From assembly GCA_947629365.1 (NCBI GenBank), contig CANRDM010000002.1:1-42417 (forward strand): DNA of 42,417 bases, given 5' to 3'. Below are positions 1 to 31,075 of the stretch, one piece after another. Positions within the stretch are counted from its first letter, which is position 1. Each line of letters starts with the position of its first letter. The stretch is from an uncultured Bacilli bacterium. Its GTDB lineage: Bacteria; Bacillota_I; Bacilli_A; RF39; UBA660. Below the pieces are notes generated by a model, which made no database searches, was not told the origin of the DNA, and worked only from the letters and a program-made list of their open reading frames with translations. A program made the position numbers and the translations under genes.

Positions 1-154
1 AAAGCTTGACATAATAAATCCTAGATAACATCTAGGCAAATTTATACTTTACAATTTCTTCAACTGCAAAACTCGGGAGAGAAAAAATATGATAAGATAA
101 AGAAGAAATAAAAGATAGAGGAGATAAGTATGTCTGTGAAAGAAAAACAAATAA

Positions 155-1846
155 TTGCAGTTTCGGGGGGGGGTATTATTACTAACAATCCTATTAATAG
201 TAGGGATTAATGTAAGTAATAAACCAAGAACAATAATAAGAGAAGACACCAAAGAACAAGTAAGAAAAGAATTTGCAATATATAAGCAGAATGCAGACAA
301 AACAAATTATGAAATATCAAATGATAATAAATTTCCTGAAGTAGGATATCTTTTAAATGAGACAAAAACAGTATGTAAAGGTTATAATGATCAAGAAATA
401 AAACCAGTTCCAGTAGTACAAGAACTAACTAATGGAGTAATAAATGGAAGTATAAGCATAAATAGTAATAATACAATCTATTGTGATTTATATTTTGATA
501 AAAATGAAACTCCAACAATAAGTAAGTTTGATGTAACAGGAAAGACAAGTGGTAATCAAAATTTAACAAATGGATTTACTTATCAAACAGATAATTTACC
601 ATTTAATGTAACATATACAGAAAGTGATGTAAAACAATATTGTATAAATGAAACAAATAATACAACAAATTGTAATTGGCAAACATTAAGTGGAACAAGT
701 GGTACATATACATTAACAAGTAAAAATGATGGAACAAAAACAATATATATATTCTTAAAAGATAAAGCAAATAATATATCAATATCATCAAGTAAAAGTA
801 TAACAGTAGATAAAACAGCCCCAGTAGTAACATCATTTACATTAACAGGAACAAATGATACAAATCAAACATTAAGTAATACATCAACTTATACACATAA
901 AAAAGAAATAAAATATAGTGCAACAATAACAGAAACAAATATGGAAGGTTATTGTATATATGAAGGTAGTAGTTGTAGTTACAATAATAACACAACAGCA
1001 ACAATAACAAATCAAAGTTATACTTTAGCAAATGAAACAGAAGGACAACATACGATAAATATAAAAGTAAAAGATAAAGCTGGAAATGAATCAGTTGTTG
1101 ATACAAATTCAACTAAAAAAATAACATTAGATAAAACAAATCCAACGGCAACAATATCATCAAAAAGTGTCACAACAAATAGTATAATAGTAACAGTAGG
1201 AAATGAAACAGATATAAGTGGAATAGTACAAAGACAATGTAAAATAAATGATCAAAATAATTGGAAAGATGCAGAGCCAAATGGAGAATGTACAATAGAT
1301 AGTTTAGATAACAAAACAGAATTAAAAGATGGACAAGAATATACAATCCAAGCAAGAGTAAAAGATGGTTCTGGAAGATGGAGTACAAATGAAGCAATTG
1401 TAAAAGTTACAACAGATAGAAAATTGACTCCAGGGCAACAAAAAGCAAAAGATGTTTTAGGAGTAGTACCAAATGGAATTAGTGATAATCTTTTAGGTGA
1501 TATGTATAGATTCTATGGTGAGTGCAATGCTTATGAAGGTGGATGCAATGGAATAGTAGATAACTTTGTATGCTTTGGATATGGCGACGCATCGAAGGAT
1601 TGCGTGAATGATGTTGAGAATATCACATACGAAAGTATTTATATGTATCGAATAATAGGAATAACGCCTGATGGTAGGCTAAAACTAATGGTTAATAACT
1701 GCGAGAGAGAAGGCTATTTTGGAACGTCTTTTTGGGATGAGGTAGCTCAGTTCGACGAAGGTGATGTAAAGTGGCCGGATTCCTCCTTGTTCAAAGAAAT
1801 TAACGGTGGGGGAGTTTTTGGACCTTTTGGATTCGTCTTGGACTGA
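155..1846 (+). CDS. Surface protein segment 1 (hydrophobic anchor plus three ~100-aa Ig-like modules; N-x-S/T rich)
   Basis: Long ORF. Module ends recur as KDKANNISISSSKSITVDKTAPVV, KVKDKAGNESVVDTNSTKKITLDKTNPTA and RVKDGSGRWSTNEAIVKVTTD (the D-x-AGN ... vDkt-P pattern of bacterial Ig-like surface repeats). The listed TTG start at 155 has no SD. Confidence 0.6.
   Translation: MQFRGGVLLLTILLIVGINVSNKPRTIIREDTKEQVRKEFAIYKQNADKTNYEISNDNKFPEVGYLLNETKTVCKGYNDQEIKPVPVVQELTNGVINGSISINSNNTIYCDLYFDKNETPTISKFDVTGKTSGNQNLTNGFTYQTDNLPFNVTYTESDVKQYCINETNNTTNCNWQTLSGTSGTYTLTSKNDGTKTIYIFLKDKANNISISSSKSITVDKTAPVVTSFTLTGTNDTNQTLSNTSTYTHKKEIKYSATITETNMEGYCIYEGSSCSYNNNTTATITNQSYTLANETEGQHTINIKVKDKAGNESVVDTNSTKKITLDKTNPTATISSKSVTTNSIIVTVGNETDISGIVQRQCKINDQNNWKDAEPNGECTIDSLDNKTELKDGQEYTIQARVKDGSGRWSTNEAIVKVTTDRKLTPGQQKAKDVLGVVPNGISDNLLGDMYRFYGECNAYEGGCNGIVDNFVCFGYGDASKDCVNDVENITYESIYMYRIIGITPDGRLKLMVNNCEREGYFGTSFWDEVAQFDEGDVKWPDSSLFKEINGGGVFGPFGFVLD
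165..173 (+). repeat. Homopolymeric G9 tract inside the 5' coding region of the surface-protein gene (candidate slipped-strand phase switch)
   Basis: Counted directly: tttc-GGGGGGGGG-tatt. G8 or G11 would put ATG-130 in frame with the 155..1846 ORF. Confidence 0.9.
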
Positions 1847-2360
1847 AAAAATAGAAGATCACTTATGGTTGTACGGAGATATTGGTGGTGAAGATGGAGA
1901 GAATAATGCTCTCGTTTTTCAAAGTGCCAAGAGCGTTTATGATATTGAAATTGGTAGAGAACAGAGCTGGAGCGGTGACTTAGTTTATTATGGATATCCT
2001 ATTGATCGATGGACAGATGTCGTCGAGACGAAAATTGGTTTAATCTATCTAAGTGATTTTATTTATGCTCATTCTGGAAATGATCTGGCGACTTGCCAAT
2101 CTGGTATGGGTTGTGATAGAGGTTGGATGCAGAGTTCGAACTCTGGTGAATTAAATCCAGAGCGTTATGAATGGACTATGACTCGCTTTGGCGTATATAA
2201 CCGAAGGACGGCTGCTTGGGCGACGATGACGTACGATCCGGGTCTGACGTCTGTACGGAGCGATATGATGTGCGCCCGCCCTACTTTTTATCTCTTGAGT
2301 GGTTTCTCTGTTGCGCGCGGTCAAGGGACGTCCCTCGACCCCTTCATCATAGCTCCATAG
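1806..2360 (+). CDS. Surface protein segment 2 (C-terminal domain), separated from segment 1 by a frameshift
   Basis: The ORF overlaps the segment 1 end. The pattern KIGLIYLSDFIYA...GWMQSS...YEWTMTR...ARPTFYL resembles a domain I recall from pilin-like and surface proteins of low-GC Gram-positives (from memory, unverified). The region is GC-rich relative to the window. Confidence 0.5.
   Translation: MGEFLDLLDSSWTEKIEDHLWLYGDIGGEDGENNALVFQSAKSVYDIEIGREQSWSGDLVYYGYPIDRWTDVVETKIGLIYLSDFIYAHSGNDLATCQSGMGCDRGWMQSSNSGELNPERYEWTMTRFGVYNRRTAAWATMTYDPGLTSVRSDMMCARPTFYLLSGFSVARGQGTSLDPFIIAP
1808..1812 (+). repeat. G5 tract at the frameshift joining the two surface-protein ORFs
   Basis: aacggt-GGGGG-agttttt. 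Deleting one G gives a continuous ...EINGGEFLDLLDSSW... reading frame. Confidence 0.8.
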
Positions 2361-2406
2361 TAACCGAGAAGGAAAACTCGTAAAAACCTCATAGACTTAA
2401 CTCTTT

Positions 2407-2436
2407 GAGAGGGAAATATTTCTCTCTCGTTTTTTG
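2407..2436 (+). terminator. Rho-independent terminator after the surface-protein gene
   Basis: GAGAGGGA-aatatt-TCTCTCTC hairpin (one G-U pair) followed by gTTTTTT. Confidence 0.6.
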
Positions 2437-10320: not shown

Positions 10321-12198
10321 ATGGATGATAATGAAATAATTGAATTAAATAGTGATAAAGAAGATTCAGTAAACTTAGAAATAAATACTTTAAATAATAA
10401 TGATAATAACCATCATAAAAAAAGTTTAAAAGATAAATGGAATGATTTAGATAAGAAATATAGAATAATGATTATTGTTATTCCTATTGTTATTTTAGTT
10501 GTGGCTTTAAGTTTAGTTTTATATTTGACCGTTTTTAAAGATAATACCCCCGCTAAGGAAAAAGAAAAGGAAGAGGAAGTTGTAATAGAAAAAGATAATT
10601 ATCGTTATGAAAATGGTCGTTTAGTTTTTCTAGATAAACTAGAAAGAGCCCTAGGTAGTTATGATTGTGTAAATAAAGATCCTAATAAATGTGCAGTAGC
10701 CAAAAGTAATTTTACGGATGATACTTTTGAAAGAGTAGTAAGCGTTTATGAAGATGGAACGGAAATTATAGCTAATTCACCGATTTATTTTGATCAATTT
10801 ATTTTTGTTACTGATGGAGATAAAATTATTTTATATGATATTCAAAATAAAAATAATTTATTAGAATTAAGTAATATTAAAATATATGATGCAAGTAGTA
10901 ATCTAGTAGTTGTTAAAGATTTAAATAATTTATATGGTTTAATTAAAATAGATGAAAAAGGGTATCAAACTTTAATTAAATGTACTTATGATAATTTAGG
11001 TATTATTAATTCATCTTTAAAATATTTAGTGGCAGAGAGTAAAGATAATAAGTATATAATTGATAGTAATGGTAAGAAGTTAACTTCTAATATTAATGAA
11101 GAAATAAAAAGTGCAAGTAAAGAATATATTGTTACTTATAATAAACAAAAATACCAATTATATTCTTTAAAGGGTGAAGAAATACTTACAGGTTATGATT
11201 ATATTGGTTTTAATAATAATTTAATTACTTTAGTATTAGATGATAAATTGTATATAAGAGATAATAAACTTAATAAATTAAATGAAGAAGGTTATCCTTT
11301 AACAAATAATAATTATGTTAAAAAATATATATTTGATAGTAATAATAAATTAAAAGAAGAAAAGATTGCTTATGAAATAAATATTAATGATAATATTATT
11401 AATATTTATGTTGATGATGATACTTATAAAATTAATAGTTATGAAGGATTAGTTAGTCATAAATATAATTATTTAAGTTATTATGATGGTATCTTATATT
11501 TTTATAAAGATAGTAATAAAGATGAAGTTATTGGTAGTTATACCTGTACTAATAAAAATACCATCAATAAAGAAGATAGCACTTTAGATAAATGTTTTAT
11601 TTATCAAGAAGATGATTTAGTATCGGGTATCTATAATGAAGTTTATGTTTTTATTAGGGATGGCGAAGAAGATAATTTTTATTTATATGATTTAAAGAAT
11701 AGTAAAGTAATGGGTACTTATAGTGAAATAAACTTTCTTAATAGTAGTGAATTAAATAAAGATATTAAATTAATTACCACCGATGTATCATATGTTTTAG
11801 CTAAATCAAAAGTGGGAAGTAATAAAGATAATTATGGTATATTAGAAATAAATAAAGAGAAGGCCCAAGGGAAAATTGAATTTAAATATCGCAGTGTTAT
11901 GAAAAATAATGATTATTATCTATTTATTAGTAAAGATAATGTTTATACTATTTATAATCACGATTTTAAAAAGATTAGTAATGAATTTGCCTATATTGAA
12001 TTATTTCCTCTTTATTATGTAGGAATTTCTGATAATAAATTAAATATTTATAAGTATGAAGAACCTTTAGGAATATTAAATGAAGGATTGACAGTTAATA
12101 GTAATGATTTTACAATTGATTTTACAGACGGATTTACAATAACTGTTGATGGGGAAGTATATAAATATAATTTAGAAGGTAATTTAAATGAAGAATAA
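10321..12198 (+). CDS. Membrane-anchored extracytoplasmic repeat protein (WG/KWG-like beta repeats)
   Basis: A single TM (IMIIVIPIVILVVALSLVLYLTVF) follows an acidic N-terminus. Repeated segments of the NLYGLIKIDEKG and KYIIDSNGKK type are present. SD AAGGAG lies upstream. Confidence 0.5.
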   Translation: MDDNEIIELNSDKEDSVNLEINTLNNNDNNHHKKSLKDKWNDLDKKYRIMIIVIPIVILVVALSLVLYLTVFKDNTPAKEKEKEEEVVIEKDNYRYENGRLVFLDKLERALGSYDCVNKDPNKCAVAKSNFTDDTFERVVSVYEDGTEIIANSPIYFDQFIFVTDGDKIILYDIQNKNNLLELSNIKIYDASSNLVVVKDLNNLYGLIKIDEKGYQTLIKCTYDNLGIINSSLKYLVAESKDNKYIIDSNGKKLTSNINEEIKSASKEYIVTYNKQKYQLYSLKGEEILTGYDYIGFNNNLITLVLDDKLYIRDNKLNKLNEEGYPLTNNNYVKKYIFDSNNKLKEEKIAYEININDNIINIYVDDDTYKINSYEGLVSHKYNYLSYYDGILYFYKDSNKDEVIGSYTCTNKNTINKEDSTLDKCFIYQEDDLVSGIYNEVYVFIRDGEEDNFYLYDLKNSKVMGTYSEINFLNSSELNKDIKLITTDVSYVLAKSKVGSNKDNYGILEINKEKAQGKIEFKYRSVMKNNDYYLFISKDNVYTIYNHDFKKISNEFAYIELFPLYYVGISDNKLNIYKYEEPLGILNEGLTVNSNDFTIDFTDGFTITVDGEVYKYNLEGNLNEE

Positions 12199-13003
12199 GC
12201 CGGTTTTATATACGATTATTATTTTACTCGTTATCTTTATTCCTCTTACTATCTTAGGTTTTTATTATAAAGAAAAACCAATAAGTATTAAAGATGATAA
12301 TACTAAACATTTTCCTTATTATAATAATAGTTTATGGTTTTATCAAAATGATAAATTAATAAGTAAATATGCTTGTTTAAATAGTAGATGTAGTTATAAT
12401 ATTAAAAGTATTATTAATAATAAGTATGTTTTTATTAAAGATGGGGATATTTTATATTTATATGATATAAATAAAGGTAGTGTTTATAATAAATATTTAG
12501 ATTGCCTTAATGAAGATAATAAATATATATGTAAAAGTGATAAAAATTTATGGGGTGTATTAAATATTAATGATGAAGTAAAAGAGATTATTCCTTTTAT
12601 TTATGAAAGTATTAATTTAAATAAAAATAAGTATATTGTTAAAAAAGATAATAAATATTATTTAATAGATGAAAATAATAATATATCTATAGGTTTTACA
12701 AGTAAAATAGAAGATTATAATAATACTTATATTATAAGTAAAGAAGAGGGTAGATACTTTATATATGATTATAAAGGTAATGAGTACTTAAATAATTATA
12801 ATATCAATAACTATAGTCTTAGTGATAATTATATTGGGATAGTTTTAAATAATAATTTAAATATTTATAATAATATAAATAATCTACCTTTAAAAGTAAT
12901 TACTTTAAATAATTATAATACTAAAATAAGATTTGAAGAAAAGAATTATAAATTAAATATTTATCTTGATGATTTATTACATAGTAGTATTGAATTATCT
13001 TAA
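12188..13003 (+). CDS. Membrane-anchored WG-repeat-like protein, smaller paralogue of the preceding gene
   Basis: N-terminal TM (VLYTIIILLVIFIPLTILGFYY). NLWGVLNINDEVKEIIPFIYESI matches the WG-repeat pattern. An 11-nt overlap with the upstream gene suggests translational coupling. Confidence 0.5.
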   Translation: MKNKPVLYTIIILLVIFIPLTILGFYYKEKPISIKDDNTKHFPYYNNSLWFYQNDKLISKYACLNSRCSYNIKSIINNKYVFIKDGDILYLYDINKGSVYNKYLDCLNEDNKYICKSDKNLWGVLNINDEVKEIIPFIYESINLNKNKYIVKKDNKYYLIDENNNISIGFTSKIEDYNNTYIISKEEGRYFIYDYKGNEYLNNYNINNYSLSDNYIGIVLNNNLNIYNNINNLPLKVITLNNYNTKIRFEEKNYKLNIYLDDLLHSSIELS

Positions 13004-16639: not shown

Positions 16640-16870
16640 TTATTTGTCTTTAACTATTGATTTGCTATAAGGTTTTCTTTCATCAGTAAGATAGGCTAAA
16701 TAATCAATGGATACATTATAATATTTTGCAAGAATTTTTGCTTGTTCCATAGTTATTTCACTTGTTTCTGTTTCATATCTGGAGTATTGTTGTTGAGATA
16801 CATTTAATACTTTAGCTATATCTTTTTGAAGTTTATCATTATCCTCTCTAATTTCTCTTATTCTATTCAT
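16640..16870 (-). CDS. XRE-family helix-turn-helix transcriptional regulator
   Basis: IREIREDNDKLQKDIAKVLNVSQQQYSRYETETSEITMEQAKILAKYYNVSIDYL is a typical Cro/CI HTH. ATG 16870 is preferred over GTG 16879. Confidence 0.85.
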   Translation of the reverse strand: MNRIREIREDNDKLQKDIAKVLNVSQQQYSRYETETSEITMEQAKILAKYYNVSIDYLAYLTDERKPYSKSIVKDK

Positions 16871-16894
16871 TATAACCACCAGTTAAATTTTCTC

Positions 16895-16967
16895 ATACTC
16901 ATTATTTGAGTATTTGCTTTTACATTAAATATGAGTACAATAAAATCACAATACTCATAATATGAGT
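16895..16967. promoter_or_regulatory. Divergent promoter region with repeated TACTCAT/ATGAGTA palindromes (candidate XRE operators)
   Basis: ATACTCA-ttatt-TGAGTAT (16895-16913), an ATGAGTA half site (16931-16937), and ACTCATA-a-TATGAGT (16953-16967). Confidence 0.55.
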
Positions 16968-16987
16968 GTAGAATAGGATGGTTGTCT

Positions 16988-17236
16988 ATGAAAAATAAAT
17001 ATTTTATTATTGTTGTAATTGTAGTGTTATTAATATTAAATGTATTTTTAGTATTAAAGAAAGATACTAGTGTAGTAGAAAAGGATGAAGTAATAAAAGT
17101 AGAAAGAAAAAACTTTAATATATATAAAGAACAGAATACAGGAAAGAAAGATTATGTATCAGTAAGTGATACAACATTTCCAACTAGTGGTTATTTATTA
17201 AATAATTCCTTCCTTTTAGTTTGGTATTTAAAATGA
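16988..17236 (+). pseudogene. Truncated N-terminal paralogue of the surface-protein gene at 130-2360
   Basis: (L)SMKNKYFIIVVIVVLLILNV...FNIYKEQNTGKKDYVSVSDTTFPTSGYLLNNS parallels MSVKEKQIIAVSGGVLLLTILLIV...FAIYKQNADKTNYEISNDNKFPEVGYLLNETKT. The ORF then ends after ~80 codons. Confidence 0.6.
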
Positions 17237-25000: not shown

Positions 25001-25645
25001 ATGAATAGTAAAAACGTAGATAATAGCCAATTAGATTTGTATGATATTTTCCAAGAAAATTTCGCAATTAAAAAAAGAGCTAATGAACAAATTAAAAAAA
25101 AGAATCAATTAGAAGATAAAATTTATAAAGAAAGTATGCTTTTCCAAATACCAAGGCGAGACTTTGCCGAAGTTGAAAATATTATTGCTCTAAAAAAGAA
25201 TTTAGAATTTTACTTTTATGAGTTATTGCCGCTTTTTATTCAAGAAGCAATAATAAGAGGCGAAACCCAATTAGAATCTATAGATTATAACCGTTTAGGA
25301 TTATCTATTAAAAATGACTTATATTATATACTTCATAAGAGCAAATTTTTTGTATCCCAATATGATGGGCATCATTATTATTTTCCTTCTGATTCAGATG
25401 ATTGTAAATTTAATTTATATCTTAAAAATTTCATTGAACAATATAATTTAGGAGAAATGAATGAAAAATTTTTATCAGATAATGTATATACAGTTGAGTT
25501 GCAAGCATCTTTTAAAGATTTAGTTTATGCTTGTTATGTTGGTGAAGAGTGGGTTAAGTATTTAGAAGATGCGTGTATAGATTTATTAAGTGATTACTTT
25601 AATGAAGAACAATTAAAAAGTTATAAAAAAGGCAGAAGGCTATAG
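25001..25645 (+). CDS. Family A paralogue 1 (unknown function, acidic, no signal peptide)
   Basis: Shares LDLYDIFQENF, KKNLEFYFYELLPLFI and DLVYACYVGEEWVKYLEDACIDLLSDYFNEEQL with the other A members. Confidence 0.8.
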   Translation: MNSKNVDNSQLDLYDIFQENFAIKKRANEQIKKKNQLEDKIYKESMLFQIPRRDFAEVENIIALKKNLEFYFYELLPLFIQEAIIRGETQLESIDYNRLGLSIKNDLYYILHKSKFFVSQYDGHHYYFPSDSDDCKFNLYLKNFIEQYNLGEMNEKFLSDNVYTVELQASFKDLVYACYVGEEWVKYLEDACIDLLSDYFNEEQLKSYKKGRRL

Positions 25646-25661
25646 AATGGTGAGTTAGATA

Positions 25662-26198
25662 ATGGAAAATAGTGAAAAATTAAATAATATAACAAATGAG
25701 CAATTAAAAATAAAACTTTCAGAAACTAGTGATGATTATTATCATACATATTGTGCTTATAGAGAAGTTGAAAGATTAGTCGGTTTTAAAAGAAATCTAG
25801 AGTTTTTCTTTTATGAATTACTTCCACTTTATATTAAAGAAAAAGATGATAAAGATCAAAAGATTTCTATTAAATTAAATTTACTTTTTGATGATAAAAC
25901 GTCCAAATATTTTTATGCAATAGATGATGATAAATTTTATTTTTTACCTTCCCAATCTCATAATTGGTTTGATTTTTTTCTTATTACATTCATTAATGAA
26001 TATAATTTAAGAAAAACAGATAAAGAGGATTTTTTTTCTAAGGATTACAATATTAATATTGAAGCATCCTTAAAAGATTTAATGTATGCTTGCTATATTG
26101 GCGAAGAGTGGGTTAAGTATTTAGAAGATGGTTGCTTAGAATTATTAAGTGATTATTACAGTGAAGAACAACTAAAGAAATATCAAAGAAGAAGATAA
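25662..26198 (+). CDS. Family A paralogue 2 (shorter; divergent N-terminus)
   Basis: KRNLEFFFYELLPLYI and DLMYACYIGEEWVKYLEDGCLELLSDYYSEEQL. Lacks the LNLYDIF N-terminal motif. Confidence 0.8.
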   Translation: MENSEKLNNITNEQLKIKLSETSDDYYHTYCAYREVERLVGFKRNLEFFFYELLPLYIKEKDDKDQKISIKLNLLFDDKTSKYFYAIDDDKFYFLPSQSHNWFDFFLITFINEYNLRKTDKEDFFSKDYNINIEASLKDLMYACYIGEEWVKYLEDGCLELLSDYYSEEQLKKYQRRR

Positions 26199-26221
26199 TA
26201 AAATTGAAGGAGGCTTTGGTA

Positions 26222-26827
26222 ATGTATATACTTGATAAAAATAATGGTGGGATTGATCTTTATACAATTACTGCTAAAAAAGAAGAATTAAAAGAATATA
26301 GGAAAAATATTATAAATGCCCAAAAAGATAAACTATTTTATTATATATTATCTAAAAATAGTAGAGTTCTTAAAGATTTTACTTCTTTAGAAGAAATTGA
26401 TTTAGATAATATTCCTTATAATAAAAAATTGGTTTCTTTTCTTAATGATCTTATTAATTATGATGACTCATCTTATCATAGAATGATTCATCAATATATT
26501 GATGGTGATAATATAACGGATGATTATCTTAATGGTTTAAAAGATAATAATATACCAATTAAAGTAATTTCTGCAAACGAAGAATTTTACTATTTAGTAC
26601 CTAAGATATGGCAAATTGATTACAATAACTTTATGTTAAGACAAGTAATGAGATTATCAAAAGAATTATATTTATTACATTTGCTTCTTTTAGGAAAATA
26701 TGAAAAATTAGCAAGTGAACCAACGCTTGAACAATTAGAGTTATTTAATATTGAATATATTAAAACAATCACTATAGAAGAATTAGCATATTTAATTAAT
26801 TCTAAATATGCCAGCAAGTGCTTATGA
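26222..26827 (+). CDS. Family B paralogue 1 (C-terminal tail displaced into another frame)
   Basis: MYILDKNNGGIDLYTITAKKEELKEYRKNI and LLHLLLLGKYEKL...EQLELFNIEY. SD GAAGGAGG precedes ATG 26222. The homologous tail ...YDSIIKKAELDGQILQKRRK is encoded in a shifted frame at 26808-26885. Confidence 0.7.
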   Translation: MYILDKNNGGIDLYTITAKKEELKEYRKNIINAQKDKLFYYILSKNSRVLKDFTSLEEIDLDNIPYNKKLVSFLNDLINYDDSSYHRMIHQYIDGDNITDDYLNGLKDNNIPIKVISANEEFYYLVPKIWQIDYNNFMLRQVMRLSKELYLLHLLLLGKYEKLASEPTLEQLELFNIEYIKTITIEELAYLINSKYASKCL

Positions 26828-26897
26828 TAGCATTATTAAAAAAGCTGAATTAGATGGTCAAATTTTACAAAAAAGAAGAAAATAAAGGAGAAGTTAT

Positions 26898-27635
26898 ATG
26901 TACATATATGATAAAAAGGCTGATAGTATAGTTTTGTATACTATTGAAGCTAAAAAGGAAGCGTTAAGAGAATATAAGCGAAAAATACTTGAGGCAAATG
27001 ATAAAGATTTATTATATCATTTGATAACTAATAGTGCTGAGGCCATAGAAAAATTTATAAATTCTAGTGAATTATCTATAAATGATCTTGATTTTTTTAC
27101 TCCAGCTAGTTCCTCTAATGATTCAATTAGTAGTTCATTTAATCCCATTTCTGGAACAAGTAATATTGCTACTTTAGAAAATAAAGTTGCCCATTATTTT
27201 AATAATAGTGCTTCATTTAAAGCTTATATTTATAATGATTATATTTATACATTAAAAAAATATATTGAAGGTAAATTTGATGATTATTCACTTAAAAAGG
27301 TCACTAATAAAAAAGGACATTATTTTTATCTTTTAAGAACAGAAAATTTTGATTTAATTGATTGTTATCAAGATGACTCATATTATATAATTAATGATAT
27401 CATTAAATTACCAAGAGATTTACAAATATTACAATTATTATTACAAGGTAGATATAGTGAGATTGGCAGTTTACCGCCTGAACAATTAAAACTTTTCAAT
27501 ATTAAATATTGTAAAAGCATTAAAATAAGTGATATTGAAGATTTATATGCAATTGGCTTAGTTAGTGGTAAATTTGAAGATACAATGAGAAAAGTATCAA
27601 GTTCATCACGTATATTGCAAAAATATAAAAAATAA
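26898..27635 (+). CDS. Family B paralogue 2
   Basis: MYIYDKKADSIVLYTIEAKKEALREYKRKILEAND..., ...YFYLLRTE..., LPRDLQILQLLLQGRYSEI, and SSSSRILQKYKK. Confidence 0.8.
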   Translation: MYIYDKKADSIVLYTIEAKKEALREYKRKILEANDKDLLYHLITNSAEAIEKFINSSELSINDLDFFTPASSSNDSISSSFNPISGTSNIATLENKVAHYFNNSASFKAYIYNDYIYTLKKYIEGKFDDYSLKKVTNKKGHYFYLLRTENFDLIDCYQDDSYYIINDIIKLPRDLQILQLLLQGRYSEIGSLPPEQLKLFNIKYCKSIKISDIEDLYAIGLVSGKFEDTMRKVSSSSRILQKYKK

Positions 27636-27654
27636 AGAAAGAGGTATAGAAAAG

Positions 27655-28305
27655 ATGGAAAATGCAAAAAAGATGGATAAAGGAGCTTTAAATTTATATG
27701 ATATTTATAAAGAAAGCTATGAAATAAGTAGTAGAGTAAAAGCTGTATATGATAAGCAAAAACAGTTAAGTGATGAACTATTTGAGTATTGTAATCACAA
27801 TTTTGTTAATAGAAAAAATTTTGAAGAAGTAGAAAGCGTTCTTGGTCTTAAAGAAAATTTATCTTTTTTCTTTTATAAATTTATCCCATTTGTAATTCAA
27901 AATTATTTATTAAAAAATCAAAATAGTATTAAATCTTTAGATGCAAATGAATATAAAATATCTACTAATTTTAGATTAAGTTATAAGACAAGTATTTATA
28001 AACATATTAGTTATGAAGATGAAAATATAGAATTTCCTTTACCTTATGATTCTGATTATTATCATTTTGAAGAAATACTTATTAAATTTATTGAAGAACT
28101 TAATTTAGGTACGATTAAAATGTTAAATTCTCAATTTGGCTTAGATTATTCTATTTTAATTGAAACTTCATTACAAGATTTAATATATGCTTGTTATCTA
28201 GGAGAAGAATTGGTTAAAGTTTTAGAAGATGAATGTATTGATTTATTAAGTGATTACTTTAGTGAAGAACAATTAGCAAATTTTAAGAAAACTCTACATA
28301 GGTAA
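27655..28305 (+). CDS. Family A paralogue 3
   Basis: LNLYDIYKESYEI, LKENLSFFFYKFIPFVI, and DLIYACYLGEELVKVLEDECIDLLSDYFSEEQLANFKKTLHR. Confidence 0.8.
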   Translation: MENAKKMDKGALNLYDIYKESYEISSRVKAVYDKQKQLSDELFEYCNHNFVNRKNFEEVESVLGLKENLSFFFYKFIPFVIQNYLLKNQNSIKSLDANEYKISTNFRLSYKTSIYKHISYEDENIEFPLPYDSDYYHFEEILIKFIEELNLGTIKMLNSQFGLDYSILIETSLQDLIYACYLGEELVKVLEDECIDLLSDYFSEEQLANFKKTLHR

Positions 28306-28326
28306 TATTTAAATAAGGAGATTATA

Positions 28327-29058
28327 ATGTACATATATGATAAAAAAGATGATAGTATAGTTTTGTATACTATTGAAGCTAAAAAAGAAGAATTAAAAAG
28401 ATATAAGCGAAAAATAATTGAAGCAAATGATGCTGATTTATTATATTATTTAATAACTACTGTAGTAACAACTAAAGACCGATTTGTAAATTCCGAAGAA
28501 CTAGCTATAAGTGATATTGTATATGGACCTGAGTGGACTATTCCTGGGAGAATTCAATCAAATTTAAGAAAATGTGGTGGTACAAAAAACATAGCATATT
28601 TAAAAGAATTATGTTTAAGGTTTCATGCAATTGGTTGGCCGCCTGATCGAGAGGATGAATGCGAAGAACAAATAAATTTAATTGAACAATACATTAATGG
28701 TGATTTTGATAATATTCCATTAATAAGAATTATTGAAGAAAACAATCATGATTTTTATCTTTTAAGAACAGAAGCAGCGAAAACAATTATGTATGGTAGC
28801 TTTTGGGTTATCGATAACATTATTAAATTACCGAGAAGTTTACAAATACTACAATTATTATTACAAGGTAAATATGAAAAAATAAATGAGGCAGAAATTA
28901 CTGATCAACTAAAGCTATTTAATATTAATTATTATGATAGCGTCAAGCTAAATAACATTAGAGATATGCATATAACAGAATCAGCTAATGACTCTTATGA
29001 ATCTATTTTAGAAAAAGTTTCTTCTGGGTCACGTATATTACAAAAATATAAAAAATAA
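28327..29058 (+). CDS. Family B paralogue 3
   Basis: MYIYDKKDDSIVLYTIEAKKEELKRYKRKIIEAND..., FYLLRTE, LPRSLQILQLLLQGKYEKI, and SSGSRILQKYKK. Confidence 0.8.
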   Translation: MYIYDKKDDSIVLYTIEAKKEELKRYKRKIIEANDADLLYYLITTVVTTKDRFVNSEELAISDIVYGPEWTIPGRIQSNLRKCGGTKNIAYLKELCLRFHAIGWPPDREDECEEQINLIEQYINGDFDNIPLIRIIEENNHDFYLLRTEAAKTIMYGSFWVIDNIIKLPRSLQILQLLLQGKYEKINEAEITDQLKLFNINYYDSVKLNNIRDMHITESANDSYESILEKVSSGSRILQKYKK

Positions 29059-29077
29059 AGAAAGAGGTATAGAAAAG

Positions 29078-29728
29078 ATGGAAAATGAGAAAATGAAGAA
29101 TAATGATGATTTAAATTTATATGATATTTTTAAAGAAAATTATGAAATAGGACAAAGAGTAGAAGCTGCACATAATAAGAAAAAACAATTAAGAGATGAG
29201 TTATTTGATTATGGCTCTATTAATATAGCTAATAGAAATCAATTTAATGAAGTAGAAAGAATAATTGACCTTAAAAAGAATTTAATATTTTTCTTTTCCA
29301 AGTTTATGCCTTTTTTGATTCATACCTATTTATTAGAAAATCATAAAGATATTAAATCATTAGATGTTAGTAAATGTAAAATATCAGCTGATTTTACCTT
29401 GAGTTATGACGAAAAATCTTACAAGTATATTTATTATGGTAAATCTTTTTACATTTTACCTTCTGATTCTGATTATAATAATTTTAATGAATTACTTGTA
29501 AACTTTATTAATGAATATCATTTAGGAACAATTGAGAAGAGAAAATCTGATGATACTGTAGAATTAATTTATTTTATAACTATAAATACTTCATTAAAAG
29601 ATTTAATATATGCTTGCTATGTAGGTGAAGAATGGATTAAACATATAGAAGATGAATGCCTTACTATATTAAGTGATTATTATAGTGAAGAACAATTAGC
29701 AAGTTTTAAGAAAACTCTCCATAGGTAA
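29078..29728 (+). CDS. Family A paralogue 4
   Basis: MENEKMKNNDDLNLYDIFKENYEIG... and DLIYACYVGEEWIKHIEDECLTILSDYYSEEQLASFKKTLHR. Confidence 0.8.
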   Translation: MENEKMKNNDDLNLYDIFKENYEIGQRVEAAHNKKKQLRDELFDYGSINIANRNQFNEVERIIDLKKNLIFFFSKFMPFLIHTYLLENHKDIKSLDVSKCKISADFTLSYDEKSYKYIYYGKSFYILPSDSDYNNFNELLVNFINEYHLGTIEKRKSDDTVELIYFITINTSLKDLIYACYVGEEWIKHIEDECLTILSDYYSEEQLASFKKTLHR

Positions 29729-29759
29729 TAAAAATATAAAATAACGAAAGGAAAAAATT

Positions 29760-30392
29760 ATGGATAAAGAAAAAATAATGAATGGTGATGCTTTAAGTTT
29801 ATATGAAATCTTTAAAGAAAGTAAGGAAGCACAAAATATGGAAGATGAAATAAACGATGCTATAGGACGATTGCAGGATAAAATGATTTATACAAACTTA
29901 TCATCATATCAAAAAGATTTTGCAAAAATAGAAAGTCTTATTTACCTTAGGAAAAATCTAGAGTTTTATTTCTATCAATTTTTACCATTTTTTATTAAAA
30001 AAACTATTTTAAATAGTAAAAGAAAGTTAAATATTACTCATTCTGTGGCTTTCAAACATATTTTTTACTGTTATCCCGGTGGATGCAAGGGCTTTGAAGC
30101 AGAAGACAAGCTTATCTATTGTTTACCAGCCCAAATTAATGGTAAAGCATTTGTTTTTCATTTAAAAAATTTTATTACACAATATGAATTAGGTAAAATG
30201 GATAGAAGGATTCCTGATAAGGAATATGAATATAACGTTAGAATACATACTACATTAAGAGATTTAATATATGCTTGTTATATAGGACAAGAATGGGTTA
30301 AATCTTTAGGAGAAGAATGTATTGACATATTAAGTGATTATTATAGTGAAGAACAATTAGATAGTTTTAAGAAAACTCTTCATAGACAATAA
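29760..30392 (+). CDS. Family A paralogue 5
   Basis: LSLYEIFKESKE, RKNLEFYFYQFLPFFI, and DLIYACYIGQEWVKSLGEECIDILSDYYSEEQLDSFKKTLHRQ. Confidence 0.8.
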   Translation: MDKEKIMNGDALSLYEIFKESKEAQNMEDEINDAIGRLQDKMIYTNLSSYQKDFAKIESLIYLRKNLEFYFYQFLPFFIKKTILNSKRKLNITHSVAFKHIFYCYPGGCKGFEAEDKLIYCLPAQINGKAFVFHLKNFITQYELGKMDRRIPDKEYEYNVRIHTTLRDLIYACYIGQEWVKSLGEECIDILSDYYSEEQLDSFKKTLHRQ

Positions 30393-30424
30393 AAATATAA
30401 AATAAAAAAAGAGGTATAGAAAAG

Positions 30425-31075
30425 ATGGAAAATGAGAAAATGAAGAATAATGAGGATTTAAATTTATATGATGTTTTTAAAGAAAATTATGAAATAGGAA
30501 GAAGAGAAAACGTTAATGAAAGAACAGAGCTTCTGAACACCGAACTATTCTTTTACGGTCACGATTACTTATTTTATCAAAGTGATTTTGTAGAAGTAGA
30601 AAGTATTCTTGGCCTTAGAAAAAATTTAGAATTTTTCTTTTCCAAGTTCTTACCCTTCTTGATTCATGAAGTTTTAAGAAAAAAACAAACCAAGATTAAT
30701 TCTCTAGATGCCAGTGAATTGGCAATATTTTCTAAATTTGAATTGCATTTTTTGACAAAAGAAAATAAAACCATTTTTTATTGTGATAACCATTCGGAAT
30801 ATTTTTTACCTTCTAATCACGATTATAGTAATTTTGATGAATTACTTACAACATTTATTATTGAATATCATTTAGGAACAGTGGTTGAGAATTGTAATCA
30901 TCCTCAAGGAAAAATATATTATATTGCCATAGATACAACATTGAAAGATTTAATATATGCTTGTTATATAGGACAAGAATGGGTTAAATCTATAGGAGAT
31001 GATTGTATTGATTTACTTAGCGATTATTATAGTGAAGAACAATTAGAAAATTACAAAAAAACTCTTCATAGATAA
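30425..31075 (+). CDS. Family A paralogue 6
   Basis: MENEKMKNNEDLNLYDVFKENYEIG... and DLIYACYIGQEWVKSIGDDCIDLLSDYYSEEQLENYKKTLHR. Confidence 0.8.
   Translation: MENEKMKNNEDLNLYDVFKENYEIGRRENVNERTELLNTELFFYGHDYLFYQSDFVEVESILGLRKNLEFFFSKFLPFLIHEVLRKKQTKINSLDASELAIFSKFELHFLTKENKTIFYCDNHSEYFLPSNHDYSNFDELLTTFIIEYHLGTVVENCNHPQGKIYYIAIDTTLKDLIYACYIGQEWVKSIGDDCIDLLSDYYSEEQLENYKKTLHR

Follow-up and report, generated by a model that had tools for sequence, protein, structure and literature searches.

The window, by which we mean the whole 42,417-nt stretch of DNA analyzed here from an uncultured Bacilli bacterium, carries close to its 5′ end a gene for a predicted surface protein in which a run of nine guanines (G9) stands between a start codon with a strong Shine-Dalgarno (SD) sequence and the reading frame of the protein body. 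We favor, with a probability of roughly 45%, the interpretation that this tract is a default-OFF homopolymer gate that DNA slippage to G8 or G11 would open. Directly supported are the anatomy of the 5′ end of the gene, the conservation of the cassette in which the tract resides, the uniqueness of the tract, the predicted surface architecture of the product, and the lack of an SD sequence at the alternative start codon TTG155 (start codons are named here after the position of their first letter). Switching itself is plausible, and we infer both the change in tract length and the expression of the G8 and G11 forms.

A G9 Tract Between the Start Codon and the Body of the Gene

The SD sequence GAGGAG (118..123; like all parts of this gene, on the forward strand) contains an AGGAG match to the anti-SD complement and is separated by a spacing of 6 nt from ATG130. 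The frame that starts at this ATG comprises 26 codons (130..210), ends with the TAA at positions 208-210, and would yield MSVKEKQIIAVSGGGIITNNPINSRD as the putative OFF-state product. The G9 homopolymer (165..173) directly follows C164 and begins 35 nt into this open reading frame (ORF). Between ATG130 and the tract the frame is open throughout, and the body of the gene is out of frame with it by exactly +1, so that either G8 or G11 would fuse the two frames. When one G is removed, the fused reading is MSVKEKQIIAVSGGVLLLTILLIVGINV..., and the product of a G8 or G11 allele would possess a normal signal-anchor; a G10 variant, read by hand from the sequence, stops after 17 codons. The sole long frame (155-1846) opens at TTG155, immediately 3′ of an in-frame TAA at positions 152-154. 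A preceding sequence-only reading of this DNA had described ATG130 with GAGGAG at a 6-nt spacing, a G9 frame that stops at 208-210 after 26 codons, and a long ORF that is open only from an SD-less TTG155. Its coordinates and frames proved to be exact, and our ORF and SD checks bear out its statement on the long ORF.

Within the 42,417 nt of the window, G9 is the only run of G or C that reaches at least 6 nt, and it again stands alone in approximately 75 kb of related loci. Of 100 dinucleotide-preserving shuffles of the sequence, none contained a G9 run. Read in the frame of TTG155, the tract corresponds to CGG-GGG-GGG, codons that are little used among the 12,418 codons of the window (CGG accounts for 3% of the Arg codons and GGG for 9% of the Gly codons). 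Since the tract is the sole long G/C run, is not reproduced by the shuffles and would consist of rare codons, we conclude that it is not a chance feature, as had been surmised from the sequence alone.

An account in which TTG155 is the true start needs to be weighed at this point. All copies of the gene would then be in frame and ON, the tract would encode Arg-Gly-Gly, and the SD-ATG130 unit would represent an incidental or regulatory upstream ORF of 26 codons that overlaps the gene. This is the most economical account of a fixed tract length, as any change by ±1 nt would destroy the protein. Furthermore, MQFRGGVLLLTILLIVGINV could be a short signal peptide, the sequence GAAAG located 12 nt 5′ of TTG155 weakly matches the 16S tail, and gene callers choose this codon in every genome. 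We nevertheless consider a start at TTG155 unlikely. An SD-like match of at least 4 nt precedes 39 of the 41 window ORFs (at least 5 nt in 33 of them), and the two ORFs without such a match both overlap the preceding gene; at TTG155, no SD-like match was found. Ribosomes that initiate at the strong SD-ATG130 signal, 25 nt upstream, would read straight over TTG155, and the chance of encountering an open and sensible signal-anchor reading from ATG130 would be low. The hydrophobic anchor would span only about 16 residues in the TTG155 product, compared with 21 residues in the G8 product and about 19 in the paralogues. Finally, a pure G9 run made of rare codons would constitute a costly frameshift hotspot, and there would be no reason for its conservation.

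A Conserved 5′ Cassette in a Multi-Copy Gene Family

Our protein search recovered 49 relatives of the gene product, and most of those that we traced come from a metagenome-assembled genome (MAG) deposited at NCBI as "uncultured Bacilli bacterium Lapin-027__bin20" and from European Nucleotide Archive (ENA) assemblies of one series. As the genes flanking the window gene are 96.3% identical to those of this MAG, the two sequences represent different strains of the same species. The family is multi-copy per genome in this uncultured rabbit-gut Bacilli species, and most of its copies start with MK(N)K.... The members of the subfamily to which the window gene belongs, referred to below as G-leader genes, are started by gene callers at a TTG, which gives MQFRGGV....

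The G-leader genes begin with a 145-nt cassette (81..225) that comprises a putative −10 element, the 5′ untranslated region, the SD sequence, the ATG, the leader, C+G9, and the hydrophobic anchor. An alignment of six copies, taken from four paralogous loci, shows this cassette to be invariant save for sites 152, 154, and 188. It is near-identical at five loci, with the copy at the fifth of them (L001) compared for the tract only and standing outside the six-copy alignment. Conservation begins abruptly at position 81 and ends at position 225: the 5′ genomic context differs between the loci, and the gene bodies 3′ of the cassette diverge to approximately 75% identity. A possible extended −10 promoter element, TGATAAGAT (90..98), can be read from the sequence in the conserved block; our consensus promoter scan did not list this element, and no good −35 element accompanies it. 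We also considered an invertible-promoter switch and rejected it, as convincing flanking inverted repeats were not found.

Three G-leader genes (P0002, P0005, and P0015) are intact ORFs of 700 codons. Among G-leader genes, the ratio of non-synonymous to synonymous substitution rates (dN/dS) is 0.2-0.4 in the C-terminal head domain of the encoded proteins and 0.5-1.0 in the stalk that carries it; the synonymous rate (dS) itself is 0.27 in the stalk between two G-leader genes and ranges from high to saturated in the head domain. Because of the intact ORFs and the head-domain dN/dS, we take the G-leader genes to be in use. Their leader could alternatively be dead, in that an ancestral G8-to-G9 mutation was spread by gene conversion; the G-leader genes would then be pseudogenes, and the copy in the window would have accumulated two lesions. 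The second fixed frameshift of the window copy (see below), the disruption of the copy at the xseB-priA locus by an insertion sequence (IS) in two samples, the dN/dS of the stalk, and the lack of any ON copy among those found are all compatible with such a decay. We judge it to be quite unlikely, however, in view of three uninterrupted 700-codon ORFs in a genome of 25% GC, in which stop codons arise easily, of the dS values together with the dN/dS of the head domain, and of the perfect conservation of the promoter-SD-ATG block.

Members of the family are also inactivated by routes other than the leader, namely by truncation, by a frameshift at a G5 run, and by the insertion of an IS21-family element, and frequent inactivation by such routes is typical of genes under fluctuating selection. 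The IS21-family element, which encodes IstA (rve/Mu-transposase C-terminal domain) and IstB, splits the xseB-priA G-leader gene approximately 250 nt past the tract. Both of its junctions are present in assembly ERZ27249317 (L018 3271-3916 and L017 1-1733), the same break point recurs in ERZ27249088 (L019), and three other assemblies have an intact gene.

The window contains, in addition, a truncated paralogue without a G tract that encodes 82 aa from the ATG at 16988 (16988..17236, forward strand). Its collinearity with the G-leader gene, noted in the sequence-only reading, extends to the N-termini of the family. A divergent XRE/HTH_3 regulator gene (16640..16879, reverse strand) adjoins this paralogue, and an XRE/HTH_3 gene is likewise found 5′ of P0022 (L021), the sole intact member outside the G-leader subfamily whose locus was examined. 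The site 16640-17236 lies 5′ of MFS/holA/mnmA; it holds the XRE gene and the 82-aa non-G-leader remnant in the window, and the intact G-leader gene P0005 (approximately 700 aa) in the MAG (L002 1-2536). This amounts to a presence/absence and leader-type polymorphism at a single locus. A phage origin of the family was rejected, as no relatives were present in viral contigs.

Uniform Tract Length Among the Assembled Copies

Nine assembled copies of the tract from five loci were available for comparison: that of the window, those of four MAG loci, and, from four ENA samples, those of the xseB-priA locus. The sequence C+G9 is shared by eight of them (the window, L002, L003, L008, L015, L016, L018, and L019). 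The ninth copy, in L001 (CANQKO010000033.1, 1-32), has TTT+G10 in place of TTTC+G9 and is equal to the others in total length; located 21 nt from the end of the contig, this G10 is either a genuine variant with a longer pure run or an error at the contig edge. In all nine copies the ATG is +1 out of frame with the body, and the TTG is in frame.

According to the slippage interpretation, translation would start at the SD-preceded ATG130, enter the (C)G9 tract, and find the body of the gene one nucleotide out of frame. Since (C)G9 imposes this offset, the default state would be OFF, with the 26-aa peptide as the product. Slipped-strand mispairing during replication, through the loss of one G or the gain of two, would fuse ATG130 to the body and thereby turn a subpopulation of the cells ON in a heritable and reversible manner. 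Leaky correction on the same tract at the level of the RNA or the ribosome might occur as well. G9 lies above the length of about 7-8 G or C residues from which homopolymers are hypermutable, and the predicted frames imply that a change of the tract by ±1 unit would toggle expression.

Several observations weigh against this interpretation. Length polymorphism is the usual comparative test for a slippage switch, and this locus fails it: the comparison of strains and metagenomes that the sequence-only reading had proposed was carried out, and no variation in tract length was found among the nine assembled consensus copies. C+G10, the other OFF length, never occurs among these nine copies, and its absence is not predicted by selection for OFF alone. 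An ON-state start of the MSVKEK type is absent from the 49 homologues and from the four members of the G-leader cluster. The data consist of consensus assemblies in which minority lengths are invisible, several of the ENA contigs have a coverage of 3.5-5x, and the samples are probably derived from one rabbit cohort. Moreover, the window copy needs a second correction at a G5 run besides that at G9; correction at G9 alone is predicted to give a 572-aa protein without the last ~170 residues of the head domain. Of the contingency-locus design suggested by the sequence-only reading, the anatomy fits our data, and the expected length variation among copies was not seen.

Further searches for the leader added little to the set of copies. 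Repeating the protein search with the N-terminus of the ON state brought up nothing but a truncated, unrelated paralogue, two exact-pattern scans of Joint Genome Institute (JGI) metagenome contigs gave no further leader copies, and a scan of species-representative genomes yielded one related MAG and chance matches only.

An invariant length is what either a fixed recoding site or a true TTG start predicts, but slippage is not thereby refuted. Nine is the modal length in true poly-G/C switches of Campylobacter jejuni (cj1139, cj0031), where it has been attributed to mutational patterns (PMC3401435), and a uniform G9 is for this reason compatible with a switch.

With fixed recoding, the (C)G9 offset would be functional, and the frame would be corrected without any change in the DNA, either by slippage of RNA polymerase on the 9-nt homopolymer or by ribosomal +1 re-pairing of tRNA-Gly on GGG-G; ATG130 would then direct expression that is either constitutive at a low level or regulated. 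A programmed site of this kind would show the identical +1 offset that we observe in nine copies, although the argument is a weak one given how near-identical these copies are. Low-level compensatory frameshifting on a G run has been documented for ±1 mutants of the G7 tract of the herpes simplex virus thymidine kinase gene (PMC5009743); it differs from the situation considered here in concerning eukaryotic translation and in being an adventitious "savior" event of very low yield. In the window copy, the second frameshift is likewise located on a G run and calls for a +1 shift as well. An AU-rich hairpin (172..225; arms 176-187 and 211-222) starts from the 3′ end of the G tract, and the cassette is invariant through this hairpin, with conservation ceasing at its 3′ end. 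Its predicted stability is, however, not significant, since a folding energy (dG) of −14.9 kcal/mol corresponds to a z-score of −1.75 (second z-score −1.27) and 15 of 200 shuffles fold equally well. As this AU-rich hairpin was the only structure found and is no better than shuffles, a frameshift-stimulating RNA structure appears improbable and was set aside. The A site is occupied by neither a slow nor a stop codon, an SD-like stimulator is missing upstream, and two studies of bacterial transcriptional slippage analyzed it on A/T runs only (PMC1088944, PMC6260861). GGG-G occurs in frame 26 times in other ORFs of the window, mostly in housekeeping genes, so that G runs are not generally shifty and a general +1 shiftiness of GGG-G can be ruled out. 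We know of no bacterial example of such frameshifting on a G run. All in all, fixed recoding appears doubtful to us. Its most demanding variant, an obligatory G-run-specific +1 recoding of all cassettes by RNA polymerase or the ribosome that would also read through the G5 run at 1808-1812, so that the "doubly broken" window gene is expressed, we hold to be highly unlikely.

One might also suspect an assembly or sequencing artefact in which a true G8 tract was mis-called as G9. G tracts are hard to sequence, and the tract lengths recorded in databases can be wrong (PMC9187656); the coverage of the ENA contigs mentioned above is low, too. But the same length was obtained in nine contigs from separate assemblies. 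Their contig names follow the SPAdes style, which we take to indicate short reads; as these assemblies agree with each other, the length is unlikely to stem from a systematic homopolymer error. The window contains 39 A or T runs of 7-8 nt and six of 8 nt, and its other genes are nonetheless intact. A systematic +1 error at G8 is, to our knowledge, not a known behavior of Illumina consensus sequences, and we find a mis-called G8 scarcely credible.

Comparison With Known Homopolymer Switches

In Bifidobacterium breve UCC2003, intragenic G tracts split the first gene of the sortase-dependent pilus loci (bbr_0113a/b and bbr_1889a/b), and in the mouse gut those lengths that join the ORFs are enriched (PMC9187656). 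The resemblance to the locus studied here is considerable: both concern a Gram-positive gut commensal with a 5′ G tract in the first gene of a surface locus, the gene is split into two ORFs in the reference sequence, the second ORF lacks its own initiation, and slippage would be needed to fuse the two. The tracts of B. breve, however, are 10-12 nt long, vary by strain, and have a measured heterogeneity, whereas the tract described here is invariant among consensus assemblies. B. breve has a high-GC genome in contrast to the 25% GC found here, its tracts belong to a pilus operon and not to a single gene for an N-terminally anchored adhesin, and the tract in our species resides within a cassette that has been copied to at least five loci.

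C. jejuni lacks mismatch repair, and its poly-G tracts mostly gate genes for surface structures. It resembles the bacterium studied here in its AT-rich genome and in intragenic poly-G tracts that gate, or here would gate, expression, and high switching rates were measured in it at both G8 and G9 (PMC3401435). Its approximately 29 tract genes are unrelated to each other, are found in mixed ON and OFF states, and vary in tract length by strain, unlike the one cassette in a uniform state that we describe. In Mycoplasma hyorhinis, the vlp genes are switched by a poly-A tract in the promoter that acts on transcription. M. fermentans p78, by comparison, has an intragenic poly-A tract, as cited in PMC3711429. 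The surface protein families of Mycoplasma, a low-GC lineage within or near the Bacilli, share with the G-leader genes a near-identical promoter-signal block on divergent bodies together with a homopolymer gate, here a proposed one, but they differ from them in being lipoproteins with A tracts.

Intragenic poly-G gating of surface genes is thus already well known, and if the gate proposed here is real, its host would be unusual and its modular cassette would be the twist. Documentation of poly-G control is so far best for Gram-negative pathogens and, as regards gut commensals, for the pilus genes of Bifidobacterium; a real switch at this locus would extend such control to an uncultured, low-GC, Gram-positive gut commensal. 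The design would be modular, with one promoter-ATG-G9-anchor cassette placed before several divergent adhesin bodies, and the cell could in this way expose different lectin-like heads in combination.

A Second Frameshift and the Full Extent of the Gene

The gene does not end at position 1846, a point that the sequence-only reading had missed. The body ORF called from TTG155 (155..1846, 563 aa) encodes the anchor (~173-214), an immunoglobulin (Ig)-like stalk (~270-1425), and the first part of a lectin-like domain. The remainder is encoded in the third frame by an ORF of 184 aa (1806..2360), which contributes the final 170-180 residues of this domain and ends with ..RPTFYLLSGFSVARGQGTSLDPFIIAP. 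Homologues of approximately 700 aa cover 94-100% of the protein that is rebuilt from the three frames (130-, 155-1846, and 1806-2360). An intrinsic terminator (2406..2436) ends the single transcription unit; the 3′ flank to which it belongs, some 70-100 nt, is kept among the paralogues.

The second break in the reading frame occurs at GGTGGGGGAG, where a run of five G residues (G5; 1808..1812) has one G more than the homologues. It moves the frame of 155 into that of 1806 and needs a +1 shift, again on a G run. A G4 version of the gene reads ..FKEINGGEFLDLLDSSW.. and agrees with the homologues, for instance with ..INGGDFLTGL.. (expected ..NGGEFL..). The identical G5 run is found in the ENA contig L020 (100% identity over 723 nt) and in L023, which originates from a different sample (99.9% identity, two single-nucleotide polymorphisms). 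Because both contigs have the same G5, the second frameshift is real and fixed in this allele in three assemblies. Under any model, the copy in the window is most likely a silenced and decaying member of the family. Gene callers place the start of all G-leader genes at the SD-less TTG and break the window copy up into two ORFs; in annotations, these TTG calls and split ORFs hide both the putative gate and the second lesion.

The Encoded Protein

The sequence-only reading had spoken of a surface-protein gene, and the predicted N-terminal anchor, Ig-like stalk, and lectin-like head support this assignment. In Pfam, the protein matched a Big_13 Ig-like domain and nothing else; a C-terminal anchor was not found in the protein. 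For the intact homologue P0002, AlphaFold predicts three parts (pLDDT 85.5), an N-terminal helix, a β-sandwich stalk (residues 40-425), and a C-terminal domain of 287 residues. The best matches of the stalk in the PDB are tandem Ig/fibronectin type III (FnIII) stalks, such as that of the Salmonella adhesin SiiE.

When modeled alone (pLDDT 86.8, pTM 0.90), the C-terminal domain has a single significant match in the PDB, the immunoglobulin A (IgA) peptidase of Thomasclavelia ramosa (9qa6; Foldseek E 5.5e-7, TMq 0.51), and weak matches to C-type lectins come after it. A sequence profile of the head domain also matches the 9qa6 protein (E 0.002) via the motif GVRPAFYL...SGSGS.SPYI. The form of the motif common to both is GVRP.FYL..(x)SGSG..P[FY]I, and the profile aligns to chain residues 181-272 of 9qa6, inside its N-terminal domain. 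That domain has been described as an enlarged C-type-lectin-like domain, dispensable for cleavage and with an enigmatic function of its own (PMC12237041). In the proteins studied here, it differs in its setting, as it is placed on the tip of a stalk with a membrane anchor and is not joined to a peptidase domain. Pfam and NCBIfam assign no family to the head domain or to the uncharacterized genes nearby. The analysis defines a new family of predicted surface proteins whose head resembles the N-terminal domain of that IgA peptidase. The predicted architecture, in which a stalk links a membrane anchor to a lectin-like head, fits a surface binding protein or adhesin.

Composition and Exchange of the Head Domain

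The nucleotide composition of the genes was assessed for window positions 155-2360, L002 178-2280, L003 6001-8118, L015 3001-5136, and L021 5490-7628. Both halves of the family gene are unusual at synonymous sites: the composition shifts sharply within the gene and departs from that of all further genes of the window that were tested. At four-fold degenerate sites, the stalk has an A content of 0.71-0.81 and a T content of 0.12-0.17; the corresponding values in the other window genes tested are approximately 0.30 for A, 0.50 for T, and 0.17 for G+C. In the head domain, the four-fold G+C content is 0.19-0.45. The G+C content of third codon positions (GC3) climbs in the head domain from 0.05 to 0.4-0.5 toward the 3′ end, and elsewhere it is approximately 0.05 in the stalk and 0.11-0.18 in valS, tsf, and rpsB.

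Up to nt 1416, the window sequence and L015 share 96% identity, and no alignment is possible after this position (1417-2440 were compared with L015, L002, L003, and L021). The head represents an allele-specific, exchangeable cassette between the conserved stalk and the 3′ flank of 70-100 nt around the stop codon and the terminator. C-terminal extensions (..DLCDGNPSCNRNPG..) are found behind both types of leader, which indicates mosaic recombination.

The alleles of the head domain are identical across four samples, and the head is for this reason not currently hypermutating. Mutagenesis of the head by a diversity-generating retroelement (DGR) was considered on account of the variable, lectin-like head and its odd composition, and was rejected: a DGR template repeat was not present in the window or the fetched loci, a reverse transcriptase was not among the Pfam matches for the tested window ORFs or the genes of the fetched loci, and the alleles do not differ between samples.

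Genomic Context of the Window

The window, apparently a complete contig, looks like an ordinary chromosome segment of a bacterium with approximately 25% GC that uses the standard code, and its genes include rpsB, tsf, gmk, valS, holA, mnmA, relA, hisS, aspS, and gatCAB. Positions 25001-31075 are occupied by a tandem array of nine paralogous genes for proteins of approximately 180-245 aa, with a nucleotide identity of 60-90% in blocks; searches with two of these genes in Pfam and with four in NCBIfam gave no match. Two adjacent genes at 10321-13003 encode N-terminally anchored proteins of 625 and 271 aa that are rich in Asn, Tyr, and Lys. One of them has a sub-threshold match to WG_beta_rep, and the pair may be further surface proteins.

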